Below, piece after piece: positions 4,508 to 13,028 of a stretch of 32,000 bases of DNA. Below the pieces are notes generated by a model. The model had not been told where the DNA came from and searched no databases. It was given only the letters and a program-made list of their open reading frames with translations. The DNA lies in the NCBI RefSeq assembly GCF_000429725.1, contig NZ_AUCK01000008.1:61122-93121 (forward strand). The letters run 5' to 3'. This DNA is from Alkalicoccus chagannorensis DSM 18086. Its GTDB lineage: Bacteria; Bacillota; Bacilli; Bacillales; Salisediminibacteriaceae. A program made the translations under genes and the position numbers. Position 1 is the stretch's first letter. Every line of letters begins with the position of its first letter.

Positions 4508-4518
4508 GGAGGCCCGCC

Positions 4519-5382
4519 ATGACAACGGTGGCATTTTACCGAGACCGATTTGTCGATATTCAGGAAGACGTCCTGCCGATAGAAGACAGGGGACATCAAT
4601 TCGGCGATGGCATATATGAGGTGATCCGTGTGTACAGCGGCGTCCCGTTTACGCTCGAAGAACATCTGGAGCGCCTCGAACGGAGTGCGGAAGCGATACG
4701 CATGCCGCTTCCGTATTCCATTGACGACATCCGTTCCCGAGCCCTGCAGGCATATGAAGATACGGGGCTGGAGGAAGCAGAAATCTACTTGCAGATCACC
4801 CGTGGTGCATGGACGAGACAGCATCATTTCCCGGAACCTGCGGCGCCGGTGCTGAGCATGGTAGCCGGACCTGCCCGGGAAGTGAGCAGCACCCTGCGGG
4901 CCTCCGGTGTGAAGGTGATCACGACAGAAGACATCCGCTGGAAGCGCTGCTGGATCAAATCCCTGAACCTGCTTCCGAACGTCATGGCGAAGCAGGAGGC
5001 GAAAGACCACGGAGCCCATGAAGCTGTTTTCGTCGATGGTGATGCGGTTACGGAAGGATCGAGCACGAATATTTTCAGAGTGAAAGACGGAGTGCTGGAA
5101 ACGCATCCGGCGACCGAGCGGATTCTTCATGGCATCACCCGCAGGATGGTACTGCAGGCGGCGGAACAGATCGGGCTGCCGTGCAGGGAACTGCCATTCA
5201 CGAAGCAGGAACTGCTGGAATCGGATGAGGCGTTTCTAACCTCGACGACGATGGAAGTGCTCGGCATCGACCAGATTGATGAGACGGCGCTGCCAGCAGC
5301 ACGTCCGATCACGGAGAAGCTGTTTCAGCAGTTTCAACAGATCAAGCACGAAACCCGAACGCAGGAAGGATCAACAGAATGA
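4519..5382 (+). CDS. dat: D-amino-acid (D-alanine) aminotransferase, fold type IV PLP enzyme
   Basis: EDRGHQFGDGIYEVIRVY, RWKRCWIKSLNLLPNVMAKQEA, VTEGSSTNIF and THPATERILHGITR match Bacillus Dat blocks as I remember them. AAGGAGG lies upstream, and the gene starts only 11 nt after the valS stop. Confidence 0.85.
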   Translation: MTTVAFYRDRFVDIQEDVLPIEDRGHQFGDGIYEVIRVYSGVPFTLEEHLERLERSAEAIRMPLPYSIDDIRSRALQAYEDTGLEEAEIYLQITRGAWTRQHHFPEPAAPVLSMVAGPAREVSSTLRASGVKVITTEDIRWKRCWIKSLNLLPNVMAKQEAKDHGAHEAVFVDGDAVTEGSSTNIFRVKDGVLETHPATERILHGITRRMVLQAAEQIGLPCRELPFTKQELLESDEAFLTSTTMEVLGIDQIDETALPAARPITEKLFQQFQQIKHETRTQEGSTE

Positions 5383-5410
5383 GGCCGTGACGAATCCGCC
5401 TGACATGAAC

Positions 5411-5460
5411 AAAAAACGCTTCCGATCATCCAGAATGGATCGTCGGAAGCGTTTCTTCTG
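5411..5460. terminator. Bidirectional intrinsic terminator after dat
   Basis: An A6 tract is followed by ACGCTTCCGATCATCC / GGATCGTCGGAAGCGT arms (10 bp + 2-nt bubble + 4 bp) and then TTTCTTCTG. Confidence 0.7.
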
Positions 5461-5762
5461 TCGATAGAAAAAGGCTCTAAAATAAATGTTGGGGGGAGAG
5501 GGGCCTTTCTGTTACGTTTGTTCATTCGTTTCCGGCGGACGCCTGCCAAGGGGCGTAGTCCTCCAGCGGCGCCGCCTTTCACACCTGAGAAGGTTTTTCC
5601 CTTTTAAGATGATCCTTCCTGCATTCGAGAAGCATCGGAGCGACCCTCGGTACATGAACCCCGACATGCGAATGAGAACCTGGAACAATCGAAACGGCTC
5701 CCAGGCGTCCTGTCTGACGTTCACCGCCGTGCGGGCAGCCCCGGACCTGTCGGCAGCTCGCT

Positions 5763-5786
5763 GGAAAAGACGCCCTCCCTGGGCGT
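5763..5786 (-). terminator. Weak terminator-like hairpin downstream of the ATP-grasp operon
   Basis: On the minus strand this reads ACGCCC-aggga-GGGCGT followed by CTTTTCC. A second 5-bp hairpin, CCCCG/CGGGG, lies at 5791-5806. Confidence 0.35.
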
Positions 5787-5822
5787 ACGTCCCCGTCAGA
5801 CCGGGGAAAGAACAGCGTAGCT

Positions 5823-6659
5823 CTAGGAGGAGAGGATGGTCTCCATTTCCCTGCGCACATAGGCCATCACAACAGCCGCAATGTTGATATCACTGCTGTC
5901 GTAGAGACTTCTGCATCCGACGGTATCCTCCATTTCATTGAACAGCAGCGTACCGTCCTCTGCCAGAAGAAAGTCGATACCGGCAAAATCGATCGGCAGC
6001 ATGGAGGTGACCGCCGTCACTTCTTCACGTTCTTTCCGGCTCAATGAATACAGGCGCGACGACGCACCTCCGGAAATATTCGCCTTGAAATTCGTAGCGG
6101 ACTCCCGAAGCACCGCCGCCTGAATCTCACCGCCGACAATATAGACGCGGACATCCCGTCCGCGCTGGCCGCCGACCGGCTGCAGAAGTACGTTCTCCTG
6201 CAGAGTGGAGTAGGCCAGCTGGTGCGCATGAGCGATCCACTCGACACCGGTGCCTCCGCGACCCATAGGATCTTTCGCAATAAACGGATAAGGAGGGTGG
6301 TTGTCCGGAACGGCCTGTCGATGCACCGCCCTGGATGGAAGCATCGGCAGGCCGAGCCGGCTGACACAGGCATGGCTGAGCCGTTTGTCATTCGCTATTC
6401 GGCTGAAACGGGCCCGGTTGAACACGCGGATGCCCTGCAGTTCTGCTGCTTCATTCAGCCAAGGCGTGGAGGTCCGCACCATGAGAAAATCCGGATAAAA
6501 CGTTCCCGGGCAGTGCAGACCCGAGACATCCAGAGAAAGGTCCTCGTACCGGACCACTGTCAGGCGGATCCCCTCCGACGCGGCTGCCTCCTGAAGAAGG
6601 TCGATAAAGGCTTGATTTCGTTGTTCGTCCTCTTTGTAATAAATAAGCCAGCCTCTCAT
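5823..6659 (-). CDS. RimK-family ATP-grasp ligase, paralog B (divergent metal-site motif)
   Basis: FIAKDPMGRGGTGVEWI (Lys plus Gly-rich loop), NFKANISGGASS (RimK-type F-K/R-x-N-x3-GG) and FAGIDFLL..LLFNEMED. The ATG overlaps the upstream stop in an ATGA (6656-6659). Confidence 0.8.
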   Translation of the reverse strand: MRGWLIYYKEDEQRNQAFIDLLQEAAASEGIRLTVVRYEDLSLDVSGLHCPGTFYPDFLMVRTSTPWLNEAAELQGIRVFNRARFSRIANDKRLSHACVSRLGLPMLPSRAVHRQAVPDNHPPYPFIAKDPMGRGGTGVEWIAHAHQLAYSTLQENVLLQPVGGQRGRDVRVYIVGGEIQAAVLRESATNFKANISGGASSRLYSLSRKEREEVTAVTSMLPIDFAGIDFLLAEDGTLLFNEMEDTVGCRSLYDSSDINIAAVVMAYVRREMETILSS

Positions 6660-7537
6660 TGCCGGATCGTCCTCCTTATCATGTAGTCGATCATGGCATC
6701 CTCCACGCGGATGCCGGTCGTCTCGTATGTACTCTTTATATGCGGATTCGCATTCACTTCGCAGACGAGTGGGACTCGGCCTGCAAACAGATCCACTCCG
6801 GCAAAATCAGCGCCGACCGCTGCCGCAGCGGCAATGGCCGTGTTTTTCTCCTCGGGTGTCGGTTCGTAAGGGACAGCCTTTCCGCCGGCAGTAATGTTTG
6901 CCCGGAAATCGGTGGATGAGGTACGCTTCATAGAGGCAGAAACCTGACCGCCGACGACGTTGAGGCGAAGGTCCGTACCAAGGCTGTCCGACACGGCTTC
7001 CTGGTACAGGTGGGGCACTTCCTGCAGATCTGCAGCTTTGAGCCGCAGTTCTTCAGAGGAGGCAATCCAGTACACCTGTTTTCCGAATGAACCATAGGCT
7101 TCTTTCACGATCATCGGAAAACCAAGGATGCGCTCCACTTCCTGTAAATAAGCATCATCCGTCCTGCCGACGCCTGCATATGCCATCGGAGCAAGAATGG
7201 TCTTCGGCTGGGGGATGCCGTGACGTGCAAACGCCTGATGCATTCTCCGTTTATTGTCACATAACGCGATGGCGGCCGCACTGTTGAACACAGGAATACC
7301 GAGCTGTTCGACCGCCTCGAGCAGCTCAATGTCTTTATCAAACGAGCAGAGGAAGTCAGGATGATGATCCAGCCCGACAACAGAACGGCTGCATCCGGGC
7401 GCTGCAGCGAGAGCATCGTTCGGCACCGCCGTCATATGTACCTTTTTCCGCCGGGCGGCTTCCTGGAGCAGCGCCACGTTGTCCATGAATTTCGGCGTCT
7501 GCAGGCCGCCATTATACAGCACGATTGCCTGAAGCAT
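6656..7537 (-). CDS. RimK-family ATP-grasp ligase, paralog A
   Basis: FPMIVKEAYGSFGKQVYWI, MKRTSSTDFRANITAGGKA and FAGVDLF..LVCEVNANP (D/E/N Mg site). I prefer the ATG at 7537 (MLQAIVLYNGG, parallel to the paralog B N-terminus) with AAAAGGGGGG 7 nt upstream. The track start at 7594 is an upstream extension. Confidence 0.8.
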   Translation of the reverse strand: MLQAIVLYNGGLQTPKFMDNVALLQEAARRKKVHMTAVPNDALAAAPGCSRSVVGLDHHPDFLCSFDKDIELLEAVEQLGIPVFNSAAAIALCDNKRRMHQAFARHGIPQPKTILAPMAYAGVGRTDDAYLQEVERILGFPMIVKEAYGSFGKQVYWIASSEELRLKAADLQEVPHLYQEAVSDSLGTDLRLNVVGGQVSASMKRTSSTDFRANITAGGKAVPYEPTPEEKNTAIAAAAAVGADFAGVDLFAGRVPLVCEVNANPHIKSTYETTGIRVEDAMIDYMIRRTIRQ

Positions 7538-7617
7538 CGGATGTCCCCCCTTTTCCATAAAGCATCTTCTGTATCTTGTCATGAACACGGACAAAAATCA
7601 AATGAGGAGGAACCTTT

Positions 7618-8814
7618 ATGAAGGAGTTTAAAGAGCGGCTGAATGCCGGGATCCGGTATGATCTGAACCGTATGACGAGGGTGCTGGAGCTGCTGGGGCA
7701 CCCGGAAAAAAACAGCAGCATCATTCATATCGCAGGGACGAACGGGAAAGGATCGACGGCAGCCATGTGCGAGGCGCTGCTGCTCGACGCAGACATGGAC
7801 GTGTTCCTGTTCCAAAGCCCTTCGCCAGGACCGAGATCCCATCACTACCGGTCGGGGGGCGCTTATGCGTCTGAGCAAGCATGGAGCGCGTGGCTTACGA
7901 GCGTGATGCCGGCTGTCAGACAGACCGAAGCAGAGATGGATGAGCAGATGACGCCGTTTGAACTGCTGACGGCCGCCGCCTTTGCAGGGGCTGCTGAGAC
8001 GAAGGCAGAGGTGCTGATTCTGGAAGCCGGCATGGGCGGACGGCTCGATGCCACCAATGCAGCCGCTGCATCCGCGGTATCGGTGATCACGTCGGTAGGG
8101 ATGGACCATCAGGCGTATCTCGGAGACACGCGGGAAGCCATTGCCCGGGAAAAAGCCGGTATTTTTAAACCTGGCGTTCCTGCGGTCAGCACAGCAGATG
8201 CAGAAGCGAGAAGCTGGCTGCAGGAAGAAGCGGAGGCAGCAGGTGCTGTCTGGGTGGATCTGCCGAACGTGGCGGATACGTGCAAAGAAGACCATCTTCT
8301 GTATCGAGATGAAGTGTGGCCGCTGCCGGTGAAAGGCCGGCATCAGGCGTCGAATGCACTGGCTGCCGTGATCGCCAGCGAAGTACTGAGCAGCCGGATT
8401 CGTCCAGAGGCACTCCGGCTTGCGGTGATGCCCGCCCGGGGGGAGTGGCTTGAGCCGGATCTGCTCGTCGATTCCGCTCATAACACGGAGGCAGTGGAAG
8501 CCTTGATTGACAGCCTCCCGGAAGGTCAGGACACCGTGTTTCTTCTCGCGGCGATGAAAGATAAACCGGCTGCTGCCATGCTGGAACGAATGCATACGAA
8601 AGGAACCGCTGCAGCTGTCGTCCCTGCAGGTCCGAGGTTCATGCAGGCAGCCGACTGGTACGCGGTAGACAGCAGCATGACGATGGTGGAAGATCCGGTT
8701 TCCTGGGTGTCGGCTCAGAAGGGGAAAACCGTCGTCGTCACCGGATCGCACGCGTTCACCTCCACATTTAGAGAAGAATGGAAAAACCGCGGCATGACAA
8801 AAGCGGGCTCGTAA
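7618..8814 (+). CDS. folC: Folylpolyglutamate synthase / dihydrofolate synthase
   Basis: P-loop HIAGTNGKGST, GIFKPGVPAV (carbamyl-Lys region), LVDSAHN, VVVTGSH. GAGGAGG lies upstream. The omega-loop region is atypical (see findings). Confidence 0.85.
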   Translation: MKEFKERLNAGIRYDLNRMTRVLELLGHPEKNSSIIHIAGTNGKGSTAAMCEALLLDADMDVFLFQSPSPGPRSHHYRSGGAYASEQAWSAWLTSVMPAVRQTEAEMDEQMTPFELLTAAAFAGAAETKAEVLILEAGMGGRLDATNAAAASAVSVITSVGMDHQAYLGDTREAIAREKAGIFKPGVPAVSTADAEARSWLQEEAEAAGAVWVDLPNVADTCKEDHLLYRDEVWPLPVKGRHQASNALAAVIASEVLSSRIRPEALRLAVMPARGEWLEPDLLVDSAHNTEAVEALIDSLPEGQDTVFLLAAMKDKPAAAMLERMHTKGTAAAVVPAGPRFMQAADWYAVDSSMTMVEDPVSWVSAQKGKTVVVTGSHAFTSTFREEWKNRGMTKAGS

Positions 8815-9527: not shown

Positions 9528-11342
9528 ATGACGAGAATTCAATGGTTTGCTGCTTCGTTTCTTGTACTGGCGGGAAGCGTAACCTTTATGCTTGTATTTG
9601 CCTATACAGCACAGCTTACATACGAGGTCTCCTTTCAGGGAGAGCGCTTTGCAGAAGATTCGGAGATTGCCGGCATAGACGTGTCAGACATGACGAGAGA
9701 TGAAGCAGTCGATGCAGTCCGAGAGAATGTGGAAGGCTGGCAGGAGGAGACGCACCTTCATCTAACCTGGTTTGATGAGGAAATCCCGGTACCACGTGAG
9801 TCGATTCAATTTCTTATCGAACCTACCGTGGACCGCCGCCTGGATGACCCGGATGCTTCGGATGAAGGAGTCATCACCGCGGTCGATCAAGGAGCTGTCC
9901 GGCAGTCAGCTGAAAGTTTTTCCTTCCGCGAAGACATGCGGACGGCCGTCGATATCGATGACCTGACCGATGATATTGAAAGGGAGACTGCCTCCTTACC
10001 CGATGACGACCTTCAGTGGATGATGCATGGTTACCTGAACGCCTCGGCGCAGCCGGAAGAAGTCGTCATTGCTGAAGCATCCCGGTCCAACGTCGTGACA
10101 CCGGAACTGCAGGAAGCACTCGACGGCGTCACGTCGGAAACTATCGAAGGCGGCACCAGCTTCTCCGTCATGGAACAGCTCAGCACCCCATCGGAGGACT
10201 GGGTGGATGAAGAACCGCTGGCGGCGCTCGGCTCTGCCGTCTTTGAAGTGGTCGCATCCAGCAACTTCAACATCGAAGAGCGACATCACCGATATGCGCT
10301 GCTGGACAGCGTACCGATGGGCTTTGATGCCCACCTGGAAGAAGATATCCGTGATTTTCAATTTACGAACCCGAACGACTACGACTATGAACTGGAGTTT
10401 AACCTGACCGGGACGAACCTGGAAGTAACGCTGGTCGGCTATGAATTCCCTTATGATATTGCCGTAGACGTCTTTGAAACAGATAATATCGGCACACGCA
10501 CGAAAATTACGTATTCTCAGACGCAGGAAACGGAAGATTCTACGACCGAACTCGATAATGGAGAAAATGGACTCCGGGTGGAAACGATCCGCACCCTTTC
10601 CTATCAGGATGCGGAACTGGATGACGAGCCGATCGGCCAGCAGGTGCTTGCCGAAGACTACTACGCGCCCGTTCATGCCCTCGAGCGCCGTTCCATTGAT
10701 CAGCGTCAGGAAGAAGAGGAAGACGAAGACGAGGACGATTTCCCTTGGTTTGACGAAGACTTCAACGGCTTTAACGACGAGGAAGAGCGCGACGAATTTG
10801 AAGACTGGCTGGAAAACGGGGAAGGCTCCGATGCTTTTGAAGACTGGCTTGATGAAGGAGCGCCGGGAGACTTCGATGATTGGCTCGAAGAAAACGGAGA
10901 CAACGGCGGCTTTGACTTCGACAACGGCAACGGCTTCGATTTTGACAATGGCAACGGCGCAGACAACGGATTCGATTTCGATACCGGCAACGGCGCGGAC
11001 AACGGATTCGATTTCGATACCGGCAATGGCGCAGACAATGGATTCGATTTTGATACTGGCAACGGCGCAGATAACGGCCTCGATTTTGATAACGGAAACG
11101 GGGACGACAATGGCTTCGATTTCGGCAATGGAAACGGGAACGGATCGAGTCCCGGAAATGGAAACGGCACCGATAACGGATTTGGTCCGGGGAACGGAAA
11201 TGGAAACGGCAACGGATTCGGTCCCGGCACTGGCAATGGCAATGGAAACGGCGCCGGCCCCGGTAATGGAAATGGCAACGGAACATTCCCAGGTGGCGGT
11301 GATCCGGGCGGAAAAGACGGCTCCTCCACTAAAGGGGACTAG
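9528..11342 (+). CDS. Membrane-anchored VanW-like protein with an acidic linker and a GN/DF tandem-repeat C-terminus
   Basis: There is an N-terminal TM helix (FAASFLVLAGSVTFMLVFAY). IAGIDVSDMTRDEAVDAVRENVEGW resembles the PG_binding_4-type domain that precedes VanW domains. Residues about 205-305 (GTSFSVMEQL..SAVFEVVASSNFNIEERHHR..VPMGFDAHL..DFQFTNPNDYDYELEF..LEVTLVG) parallel the VanW core as I remember it from YoaR-like proteins. The C-terminal 200 aa are low complexity. RBS is TAGGAGGA. Confidence 0.55.
   Translation: MTRIQWFAASFLVLAGSVTFMLVFAYTAQLTYEVSFQGERFAEDSEIAGIDVSDMTRDEAVDAVRENVEGWQEETHLHLTWFDEEIPVPRESIQFLIEPTVDRRLDDPDASDEGVITAVDQGAVRQSAESFSFREDMRTAVDIDDLTDDIERETASLPDDDLQWMMHGYLNASAQPEEVVIAEASRSNVVTPELQEALDGVTSETIEGGTSFSVMEQLSTPSEDWVDEEPLAALGSAVFEVVASSNFNIEERHHRYALLDSVPMGFDAHLEEDIRDFQFTNPNDYDYELEFNLTGTNLEVTLVGYEFPYDIAVDVFETDNIGTRTKITYSQTQETEDSTTELDNGENGLRVETIRTLSYQDAELDDEPIGQQVLAEDYYAPVHALERRSIDQRQEEEEDEDEDDFPWFDEDFNGFNDEEERDEFEDWLENGEGSDAFEDWLDEGAPGDFDDWLEENGDNGGFDFDNGNGFDFDNGNGADNGFDFDTGNGADNGFDFDTGNGADNGFDFDTGNGADNGLDFDNGNGDDNGFDFGNGNGNGSSPGNGNGTDNGFGPGNGNGNGNGFGPGTGNGNGNGAGPGNGNGNGTFPGGGDPGGKDGSSTKGD
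10794..11285 (+). repeat. In-frame coding tandem repeats: 3x (F/A)(E/D)DWL(E/D)xG units, five 36-bp GNGADNGFDFDT units (10950-11129), then a degenerate GNG hexanucleotide array
   Basis: Direct reading shows ggcaacggcgcagacaacggattcgatttcgatacc repeated head-to-tail at 10950, 10986, 11022, 11058 and 11094, with mostly synonymous differences (aac/aat, gac/gat, ttc/ttt). A ggaaac/ggcaat periodicity follows, up to about 11285. Confidence 0.9.
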
Positions 11343-11363
11343 CAGCAGGGCAGGTGAAACAAC

Positions 11364-13028
11364 ATGGCAGCACATGATCGTCGCCGTTTAGGTGATATCC
11401 TGGTTGATGCAGGAATGCTTACGAAGGAAGAGGTAGAGAAAACCGTTGCAGAAAAAGGGGATGAAAAGCTCGGAGACGCGCTGAAAAACCGGGGATTGAT
11501 CACGGAAGAAGAGCTGCTGGAACTGCTCGAATTCCAGCTCAGCATCCCGCGGATCAGACTGAATACGTTCCCGGTCGACACCGAAGCGGTCAAGCATGTT
11601 TCGCGCGCTTTTGCTGAACGAAACGACCTCATACCGGTAGAGAAATCCGGAACGACCCTGCGCGTGGCGATGGCCGATCCCATTGATTATTTCGCCCTGG
11701 ATGATATCCGGATGTCTTCTGGTTTTGAAGTAGATCCGGTTATAGCAAGCAAGATGGAGATCCGGGAAGCGGTTGCTGCCTACTATGCCGATTGGGAAGA
11801 GGCAGCGTTCCAAGTATCGGAAGCAGAAACGTCCAGCAGTATGACCCAGATCGGTGACCGGGAAGAAGACGCCCCGGTCATCCGCATGGTCAACCAAATG
11901 CTGATCAAAGGCCTTCAGAAAGAAGCGAGTGACATTCACGTAGATCCGCAGGAAGATAAAGTGCTCTTCCGCTACCGGATTGATGGCGTTCTTCATTCGG
12001 AAAGAGCGATGAGCAGGGAATACCAGAATGCGCTGACAGCGAGAATAAAGATCATGGCTGAATTGAATATCACAGAAACGAGGCTTCCGCAGGATGGGCG
12101 GGTGAAAGTGCATGTCGAGCAGAAGCAGGTGGACCTCCGCATCTCCACGATGCCGACGATCTTCGGCGAGAAGATTGTGATCCGGATTCTTGATAAAGAA
12201 GGAGCGCTGAAAGAAATCGAGGACCTCGGTTTCAACAGCATGAATTTGAAAAAATTCCGGAAGCTGATCGAGCGGCCGTCCGGTATGATACTGATTACAG
12301 GACCGACGGGCTCCGGCAAGACGACGACGCTATATGCCGCCCTGAATCGCCTGAACGGCGAGGAAGTCAATATCATTACTGCGGAGGACCCCGTCGAATA
12401 CCAGATCGAAGGAATTAATCAAGTACAGGTGAAGCCTGAAATCGGGTTGACGTTTGCCCATACACTCCGCACGATTCTCCGGCAGGACCCGGATATTGTT
12501 ATGGTCGGGGAAGTACGTGATTCAGAAACGGCGGAAATCGCGATACGGGCCGCGCTGACAGGTCATCTCGTGTTCAGTACGATTCACACAAACAGCGCGG
12601 TCGCCACCATACCGCGGCTAATTGATATGGGCATCGAGCCGTACCTGGTCACCTCCTCCGTATCCGGTATCATCAGTCAGCGGCTCGTGAGAGAGATCTG
12701 CTCGAACTGCCGCACATCCGATGTACCAACAGAGGCAGTGAAAGAAATATTCGAAGCACGGGGCATGGACGTGGAGGCGGTTTATTATGGAAGCGGCTGT
12801 GAAGCCTGCAATGGCAGTGGCTACCGCGGTCGTCTGGCGGTACATGAAATCATTGCTGTCGATGATCTCGTCCGCAAAATGATTCTCAACAATGCGGAGA
12901 TGTCAGCCATCCGCCGGTATCTCCTGGACCAGGACATGCTGTTTCTCATGGACGACGGTTTTTTCAAGGCAGCACAGGGCAAGACGACCCTGGAAGAGAT
13001 CTACCGGGTGGCGGCAGATGATGCATAA
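11364..13028 (+). CDS. pilB: Type IV pilus assembly (extension) ATPase PilB, GspE family
   Basis: Walker A GPTGSGKTTT, Asp/His boxes, and a tetracysteine cluster CSNC...CEACNGSGYRGR. The N-terminal T2SSE_N/MshEN-like domain begins RLGDILVDAG. SD AGGTGA lies upstream. Confidence 0.93.
   Translation: MAAHDRRRLGDILVDAGMLTKEEVEKTVAEKGDEKLGDALKNRGLITEEELLELLEFQLSIPRIRLNTFPVDTEAVKHVSRAFAERNDLIPVEKSGTTLRVAMADPIDYFALDDIRMSSGFEVDPVIASKMEIREAVAAYYADWEEAAFQVSEAETSSSMTQIGDREEDAPVIRMVNQMLIKGLQKEASDIHVDPQEDKVLFRYRIDGVLHSERAMSREYQNALTARIKIMAELNITETRLPQDGRVKVHVEQKQVDLRISTMPTIFGEKIVIRILDKEGALKEIEDLGFNSMNLKKFRKLIERPSGMILITGPTGSGKTTTLYAALNRLNGEEVNIITAEDPVEYQIEGINQVQVKPEIGLTFAHTLRTILRQDPDIVMVGEVRDSETAEIAIRAALTGHLVFSTIHTNSAVATIPRLIDMGIEPYLVTSSVSGIISQRLVREICSNCRTSDVPTEAVKEIFEARGMDVEAVYYGSGCEACNGSGYRGRLAVHEIIAVDDLVRKMILNNAEMSAIRRYLLDQDMLFLMDDGFFKAAQGKTTLEEIYRVAADDA

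Follow-up and report, generated by a model that had tools for sequence, protein, structure and literature searches.

RimK-type ATP-grasp ligases beside an arginine-less FolC are candidate folate-tail ligases in Bacillales

The stretch of DNA analyzed here (hereafter the window) comprises 32,000 nucleotides of Alkalicoccus chagannorensis DSM 18086 (NCBI RefSeq assembly GCF_000429725.1, contig NZ_AUCK01000008.1, positions 61,122 to 93,121 of the forward strand) and carries two adjacent genes, graspA and graspB, which encode paralogous RimK-type ATP-grasp ligases (A and B) and lie divergent from folC. We found that the FolC encoded beside this pair (FolC*) belongs to a group of FolC proteins that have lost an otherwise invariant arginine in the omega-loop. 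We judge the chances somewhat better than even that A and B are ATP-dependent amino-acid ligases, most likely L-glutamate ligases, acting on the folate glutamyl tail alongside a specialized FolC. A preliminary description of the window, made from its letters, had put forward modification of folylpolyglutamate as one of two suggestions drawn from gene neighborhood; adjacency to folC in multiple genera, correlated loss of the arginine, an A-FolC fusion and an A-B-FolC2 operon, and linkage to fhs and purU now lend it support.

The omega-loop arginine (the last residue of the motif S-P-x6-(E/D)-R, corresponding by alignment numbering to R82 of L. casei folylpolyglutamate synthetase, FPGS) was found in all 23 FolCs compared from genomes without the pair and in none of the 16 encoded beside it, which carry Gln (9), His (5), Met (1) or Ser (1) at this site. 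Among 62 columns invariant in the pair-less FolCs, 37 are kept in all 16 pair-adjacent proteins (P-loop, Mg ligands, carbamylated Lys and D-x-x-H-N motif included), and the omega-loop arginine is the only one of the 62 lost in all 16; FolC* is thus an intact ligase in which one specific position has changed. The arginine was likewise missing in 49 of 50 named species in which folC adjoins the pair (replaced by Gln in 23, His in 19, Ser in 3, Glu in 2, Tyr in 1 and Pro in 1). Work of Sun and colleagues in 1998 reportedly found that the omega-loop takes part both in the active site and in the interface between domains.

In the window, the arginine site is occupied by H76. FolC* scores 251.5 bits against TIGR01499 (cut-off 162.65) and retains the P-loop GTNGKGS as well as E136, H164, K179, D285, H288 and N289. 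The genome has folP and no FolC match other than FolC*, which must therefore presumably still supply dihydrofolate synthase (DHFS) activity. The oddity of its omega-loop region (7816-7866) is common in kind to congeners, in which the loop reads, for example, TPSPGERHEQL or SPSFSGREEQF; it is thus a feature of the lineage and no artifact of sequencing or of a frameshift.

We also examined the lowest-scoring FolCs of genomes without A, as the likeliest counter-examples, and found the arginine kept in 15 further low-scoring FolCs of A/B-less genomes, for a total of 38 of 38 FolCs inspected from complete genomes without A, B or a second FolC. In family f30, FolC has Lys at this site and a B-only ligase divergently adjoins folC, and one f30 genome (G111) pairs a Lys-bearing FolC with an adjacent second FolC. 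FolC has Gln in family f39, where a second FolC paralog retains the arginine, and two B-only genomes carry tandem FolCs next to B, both with Gln. One Arg-less FolC was found without A or B; it comes from a 75%-complete genome, and the pair is present in 4 of 5 members of its genus. In no complete genome did an Arg-less FolC stand without A, B or a further FolC-type ligase. The simplest reading is that the arginine would serve the polyglutamylation mode of FolC, and that supply of this function by A/B or by a second FolC leaves the arginine free to be lost. The diverged FolC paralogs themselves have the P-loop GSKGKGS or GSCGKGS with the omega-loop arginine kept (L040:5774-7105(-), L157, L173, L211; L114/L127; L128, L131), and they lie in the pair operon of Sutcliffiella, beside FolC1 and a CapA-like PGA_cap gene in G111, and beside valS in f39.

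In a FolC tree, the Arg-bearing FolCs form one clade (99% support) with the Arg-less FolCs outside it, and the pair-less genome G084 has an Arg-bearing FolC inside an otherwise Arg-less clade. Both types of FolC occur within one genus and track the presence of the pair in g40 and in Sutcliffiella (g14), and within-genus contrasts of arginine versus pair agree in g40, g14 and g64, with relatives in these contrasts not being independent.

The gene neighborhood of the pair points to folate as well. folC directly adjoins A in 50 of 80 named species, nearly always divergently, and the pair occupies the slot between valS and folC in 14 of 20 loci drawn from different Bacillales families. Of the two linkages drawn in the preliminary description, that to folC is conserved in many genera, whereas dat travels with valS. 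Other folate genes also stand beside the ligases: the order FtsK-A-(B)-FTHFS was seen at 11 Clostridia loci, from Lachnospiraceae, Eubacterium, Herbinix, Anaerocolumna and Mobilisporobacter; fused A-B genes lie 80 nt upstream of FTHFS (formate-tetrahydrofolate ligase, fhs); and purU is directly upstream of the ligase cassette in Paenibacillus thermotolerans. In Sutcliffiella, an A-B-FolC2 operon is divergent from the Arg-less FolC1.

A and FolC can also be joined in one chain. A natural A-FolC fusion of 853 aa, found only by exhaustive protein search, joins a genuine FolC (TIGR01499 340 bits) to an A-type domain that scores 179 bits against rimK_fam and is 36% identical to A; its omega-loop reads ...SEC..., without the arginine. 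A long-protein search with the A profile returned A-B and RNase-H-like-A fusions and no FolC fusion, and the corresponding search with the B profile returned no longer proteins. Exhaustive protein search gave a family size of 307 clusters at 50% identity (E <= 1e-30). In some Clostridia-type A proteins (P0130, P0132, P0133, P0135, P0136, P0140; locus L105:7001-9697), an N-terminal extension of ~280 aa weakly matches RNase H / RVT_3, and B is encoded by a gene of its own that comes next.

Either or both ligases were present in 65 of 301 sampled Bacillales genomes, with both genes in 50 (always adjacent), A only in 6 and B only in 9. Single-chain A-B fusions of ~575 aa from metagenomes, with an A-like N-terminal half and a B-like C-terminal half, make up 11 of 17 long homologs, and it follows from these fused proteins that A and B function together. 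The preliminary description had proposed either a heteromer or two sequential ligation steps; joint action is upheld by the fusions, whereas the lineages that have only A or only B make an obligate heteromer unlikely, and for this reason we rejected it as the sole model. Two related, partly redundant ligation steps fit better.

Both proteins belong to the RimK family without falling into any of its named functional groups. A and B, which are 29% identical over 274 columns, are the sole RimK-domain genes in the 3.5-Mb genome. Each exceeds the gathering cut-off of 21 for PF08443 (Pfam RimK; A 116 bits, B 55 bits), and A passes the broad family model TIGR00768 (163.7 bits, cut-off 143.4) whereas B does not (87.1 bits), being a diverged member. 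Neither reached the equivalog thresholds for S6-RimK (NF007764, at least 331 bits; A 92.1, B 49.2), CofF (TIGR04443, at least 300 bits; A 51.1, B no match), MptN (NF040720, at least 350 bits; A 96.9, B 51.5) or LysX (TIGR02144, at least 275.6 bits; A 123.4, B 50.8), and with all of these scores too low the pair was not placed in a clade of known unrelated function such as S6 modification. Public databases label homologs 'RimK family', 'S6--L-glutamate ligase' or 'F420 ligase'.

The RimK signatures quoted in the preliminary description, DFRANITAGGKA and NFKANISGGASS, are present, and the two metal sites that it distinguished, a canonical D...E-V-N in A and NEMED in B, correspond to D249...E260-V-N262 and D229...N241-E-M-E-D245. 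Across 23 orthologs of A, K145, D189, R191, DFRAN210-214, D249, E260 and N262 are all invariant, as are K129, D169, R171, N194, D229 and N241-E-x-E-D245 across 20 orthologs of B. These sets take in the nucleotide Lys and D-x-R of both proteins, the D/E/N metal ligands of A, and the FRxN Asn of B. The NE(I/M)ED motif, in which Glu replaces the Asn metal ligand of A, is found in 20 of 20 B orthologs, and its invariance marks it as a conserved feature rather than decay; the FRxN arginine position of B is variable in the same proteins (Lys in 13, Arg in 4, Leu in 2, His in 1). B is thus no copy in decay but a conserved enzyme whose active site has been deliberately altered, and both A and B look active, to judge by the invariant ATP-grasp catalytic residues that they keep. 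AlphaFold2 (AF2) models of both have the three-domain ATP-grasp fold, with a predicted local distance difference test score (pLDDT) of 93.6 for A and 93.9 for B. In Foldseek comparisons, the best Protein Data Bank (PDB) match was RimK 5zk6 for A, at a template-modeling (TM) score of 0.85, and ArgX 3vpb (TM 0.81) followed by RimK (TM 0.80) for B.

Comparison with characterized ligases suggests where the pair may belong. RimK, the S6:L-glutamate ligase of E. coli and Pseudomonas (PDB 4iwx, 5zct, 5zk6, 7qyr), shares with A its ATP-grasp fold, membership in TIGR00768, and the catalytic Lys, D-x-R, FRxN and D/E/N metal motifs, whereas it is only 26-28% identical, the S6 tail of this genome is unsuitable, and the pair is linked to folate genes. 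LysX and ArgX, the amino-group carrier protein ligases (PDB 1uc8, 3vpb, 5k2m), offer a precedent for activation of a terminal Glu gamma-carboxylate by the RimK family, in contrast to which no LysW-like carrier gene lies beside the pair. The closest functional analogy is with CofF (gamma-F420-2:alpha-L-glutamate ligase) and MptN (tetrahydromethanopterin:alpha-L-glutamate ligase), which add glutamate to a cofactor tail; CofF acts after another glutamyl ligase, CofE, in F420 synthesis, much as A and B would act after FolC, whereas the acceptor proposed here is folate. These Bacillaceae are not known to use F420 or methanopterin as cofactors. FolC/FPGS (PDB 1fgs, 1w78) catalyzes the reaction class proposed for A and B, ATP-dependent addition of glutamate to folate, with a Mur-ligase fold as opposed to their ATP-grasp fold, and is here a partner and not a relative.

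Under the favored reading, FolC*, with its catalytic residues intact and its arginine gone, would still make dihydrofolate from dihydropteroate. A would activate one of the carboxylates on the folate glutamate tail as an acyl phosphate, following standard ATP-grasp chemistry, and add glutamate, and B would perform a second, related ligation that may differ in chain length or in linkage (alpha versus gamma). Together they would supply the polyglutamylation that the Arg-less FolC no longer provides. The analysis itself shows that A and B are family members with conserved catalytic residues, that they form an operon, that they are linked to FolC and co-vary with it, and that fusions occur; we infer folate as the substrate, which amino acid is joined to it and by what linkage, and which activity FolC has lost. 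The proposal, a new function for members of a known enzyme family, appears well supported by comparative genomics.

Several observations weigh against this reading. In Peribacillus kribbensis, folC is adjacent to the pair and yet keeps the arginine. Where it does not adjoin folC, the pair also coexists with an Arg-bearing FolC: this is so in families f2 and f24 and, among five carriers that are more distant, in Paenibacillus thermotolerans, Mobilisporobacter and Alicyclobacillus. The coupling therefore runs one way. About 16 of 80 loci lack a folate gene within 6 kb, part of the folC adjacency is inheritance of an old valS-folC synteny block, and the related genomes that enter the adjacency counts are not independent. 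When the window and six related loci were scanned against Rfam, only T-boxes, 6S RNA and a known c-di-GMP-II riboswitch came up, with no tetrahydrofolate riboswitch near the pair or folC. Our literature searches for RimK together with folC or folate found no paper, biochemical or genetic, on these proteins, and those on the role of FPGS R82 found no relevant study.

That f2, f24 and several other taxa have the pair together with a normal FolC would be expected if FolC* still made the gamma-polyglutamate chain and A and B merely capped it, in the manner of CofF on F420, with a single alpha-linked glutamate, a few of them or some other residue; loss of the arginine would then be an adaptation to the modified product rather than a loss of FPGS activity. 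Alpha-linkages are what RimK, CofF and MptN all make, to judge by the family names, which is consistent with such capping, as is the precedent of E. coli, whose folates carry distal alpha-linked glutamates (PMC1971073). This account leaves unexplained, however, why Arg-less FolCs occur only with A, B or a second FolC paralog, and why a FolC paralog can stand in for A/B, as it does in f39, and we consider it unlikely.

We think it improbable that the acceptor is something other than folate, with A and B and FolC-like Mur ligases making a free oligo- or polyglutamate or another small peptide as a polymer, osmolyte or storage compound. Many carriers are indeed halophilic or alkaliphilic Bacillaceae, the FolC/FolC2/B cluster of f30 includes the PGA_cap (CapA-like) gene, and some ligase cassettes include an FGase-family hydrolase, a fold that also includes poly-gamma-glutamate hydrolase. 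RimK, moreover, makes poly-alpha-glutamate in vitro (title of PDB entry 5zct). Against this, FolC* as the only FolC of a folP-bearing genome must serve folate synthesis, the fhs and purU linkages are folate-specific, the non-halophilic Peribacillus and the rumen and gut Clostridia are also carriers, and the co-variation of FolC would go unexplained.

Glutamylation of a protein C-terminus, be it that of ribosomal protein S6, as carried out by RimK, or of some other protein, is suggested by the best sequence and fold matches of A, which are RimK structures including a RimK-RpsF complex, and by the public 'S6--L-glutamate ligase' annotation of some homologs. We regard this as highly improbable, given scores far short of the RimK equivalog cut-off and the nature of the S6 tails. 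RimK requires an S6 with a C-terminal Glu-Glu acceptor, whereas S6 ends in ...REDD in this genome and in K (Sutcliffiella) or Q (g40, g17) in other carriers; S6 is also near-identical between carriers and non-carriers of one genus, so that its tails do not co-vary with the pair. Nor did we find a conserved small acceptor gene or a LysW-like gene beside the pair, and in several loci B abuts valS, leaving no room for one.

The second suggestion of the preliminary description, a D-amino-acid or peptidoglycan-bridge ligase fed by the D-amino-acid aminotransferase Dat, is scarcely credible when judged chiefly by gene context, since it draws on the convergent position of dat in the window only, whereas 20 Bacillales loci have no dat close to the pair, dat elsewhere follows valS directly at ~4 kb from B (in Alkalicoccus urumqiensis and four Salipaludibacillus species only) and is never the immediate neighbor of the pair, dat in the window begins 11 nt past valS with a strong terminator between it and B, and many carriers have directly cross-linked meso-diaminopimelate peptidoglycan. 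The window dat (4508-5382) shares its valS-dat order with L140-L142, L153 and L154, and the valS-dat pairing is conserved in these genera and separate from the ligase pair.

Folate polyglutamylation, which controls how well the cofactor is retained and its affinity for enzymes and has a bearing on antifolate action, is ascribed to FolC/FPGS alone. We know of no RimK-type enzyme that builds or finishes the folate glutamate tail, and of no gene assigned to the folylpoly-alpha-glutamate synthetase activity of E. coli. Division of labor within FolC has been described in L. reuteri, where the DHFS and FPGS functions are divided between two genes (PMC5061717), and for Mycoplasma without folC, a 'novel type of FPGS' has at one time been considered (PMC1971073). 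We tentatively extend the favored reading of A and B as folate-tail ligases to a wider proposition, whose odds we put below even: RimK-type ATP-grasp ligases may form a second, unrecognized class of folate polyglutamate synthetases that took over tail synthesis in many Bacillota, leaving FolC a dihydrofolate synthase only, recognizable by its missing omega-loop arginine. Ligases of this class could be the 'novel type of FPGS gene' postulated for Mycoplasma (PMC1971073), and they could also lie behind alpha-linked folate glutamates. The alpha-glutamyl folate activity of E. coli (Ferone, Singer and Hunt 1986, as cited in PMC1971073) is a folate-tail glutamate ligase distinct from FolC and known as an enzyme preparation only.

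If the folate-tail reading is correct, a widespread ATP-grasp system would be added to a textbook pathway, sharing or taking over polyglutamylation, and the many Bacillaceae 'FolC' sequences without an invariant residue would be explained. It would also correct the 'S6 ligase' and 'F420 ligase' annotations in databases, and provide a candidate for the source of alpha-linked folate glutamates and for folate-using bacteria that lack folC. The FolC arginine would then be a simple sequence marker with which to predict genomes that depend on the ligase system.

Table 1. Coordinates of the ligase pair, the adjacent folC and associated features in the window.
Feature	Position	Strand	Remarks
graspA (A)	6656..7537	-	ATP-grasp ligase of the RimK family, 293 aa; the pair's core member
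graspB (B)	5823..6659	-	Diverged RimK-family paralog, 278 aa, translationally coupled to A
ATGA overlap of A stop and B start	6656..6659	-	Direct sequence reading
Divergent graspA/folC spacer, 80 bp	7538..7617	.	Contains both ribosome-binding sites
folC*	7618..8814	+	Only FolC homolog of the genome, 398 aa; remodeled omega-loop, catalytic residues intact
FolC omega-loop, residues 67-77 SPSPGPRSHHY	7816..7848	+	Alignment with 1fgs and 1w78; column analysis
Bidirectional terminator hairpin	5413..5455	.	RNA fold -35.9 kcal/mol, z = -5.6

The arrangement of the window is given in Table 1. Its coordinates bear out the earlier claims that the two ligase genes overlap by ATGA and that the A and folC start codons lie 80 bp apart on opposite strands, as well as the identities given to the neighbors dat, valS and folC (TIGR01121 286 bits for dat, TIGR01499 251 bits for folC). 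On the minus strand, the A frame runs from ATG at 7537 to TGA at 6656-6658, and the B frame from ATG at 6659 to TAG at 5823-5825, preceded by the ribosome-binding sites AAGGGGGG (A) and AAGGAGG (B). The longest open reading frame (ORF) of A begins at TTG 7594, and alignment of homologs favors ATG 7537 as its start. A promoter scan of 5300-7900 found no consensus promoter in the 80-bp spacer. The valS-dat unit converges on the pair from the far side, and the terminator, which sits between dat and B and is followed by a U run on the minus strand, is common to that unit and the graspA-graspB operon. From the graspB stop to this terminator lie ~370 nt (5456-5822) with no conserved ORF and no Rfam match; a small hairpin and T-run stand directly past the graspB stop (~5765-5786).

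In several Bacillales and in Paenibacillus, the pair forms part of a four-gene cassette with two further proteins (L038:8881-11421(-), L039:8882-11495(-), L043, L051, L058:7336-8004 and 9769-11445). One is an FGase-family (N-formylglutamate amidohydrolase-like) protein of ~220 aa, and the other a protein of ~560-640 aa with weak double-psi-barrel matches (Molydop_binding / CDC48_N); atlas searches named neither beyond the FGase family. The genome of the window has no homolog of the large (~600-aa) protein, and its FGase-like homolog on contig C6 is distant (34% identical) with uninformative context. At the loci examined, neither rimA nor rimB accompanied the pair. In three lineages, GGDEF/EAL genes are found no more than a few kb from the pair (L035:4798-6477, L048:9186-11009, L050:10381-11670). 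This recalls the cyclic di-GMP control of Pseudomonas RimK (RimABK), but genes of this kind are too common to count as evidence.

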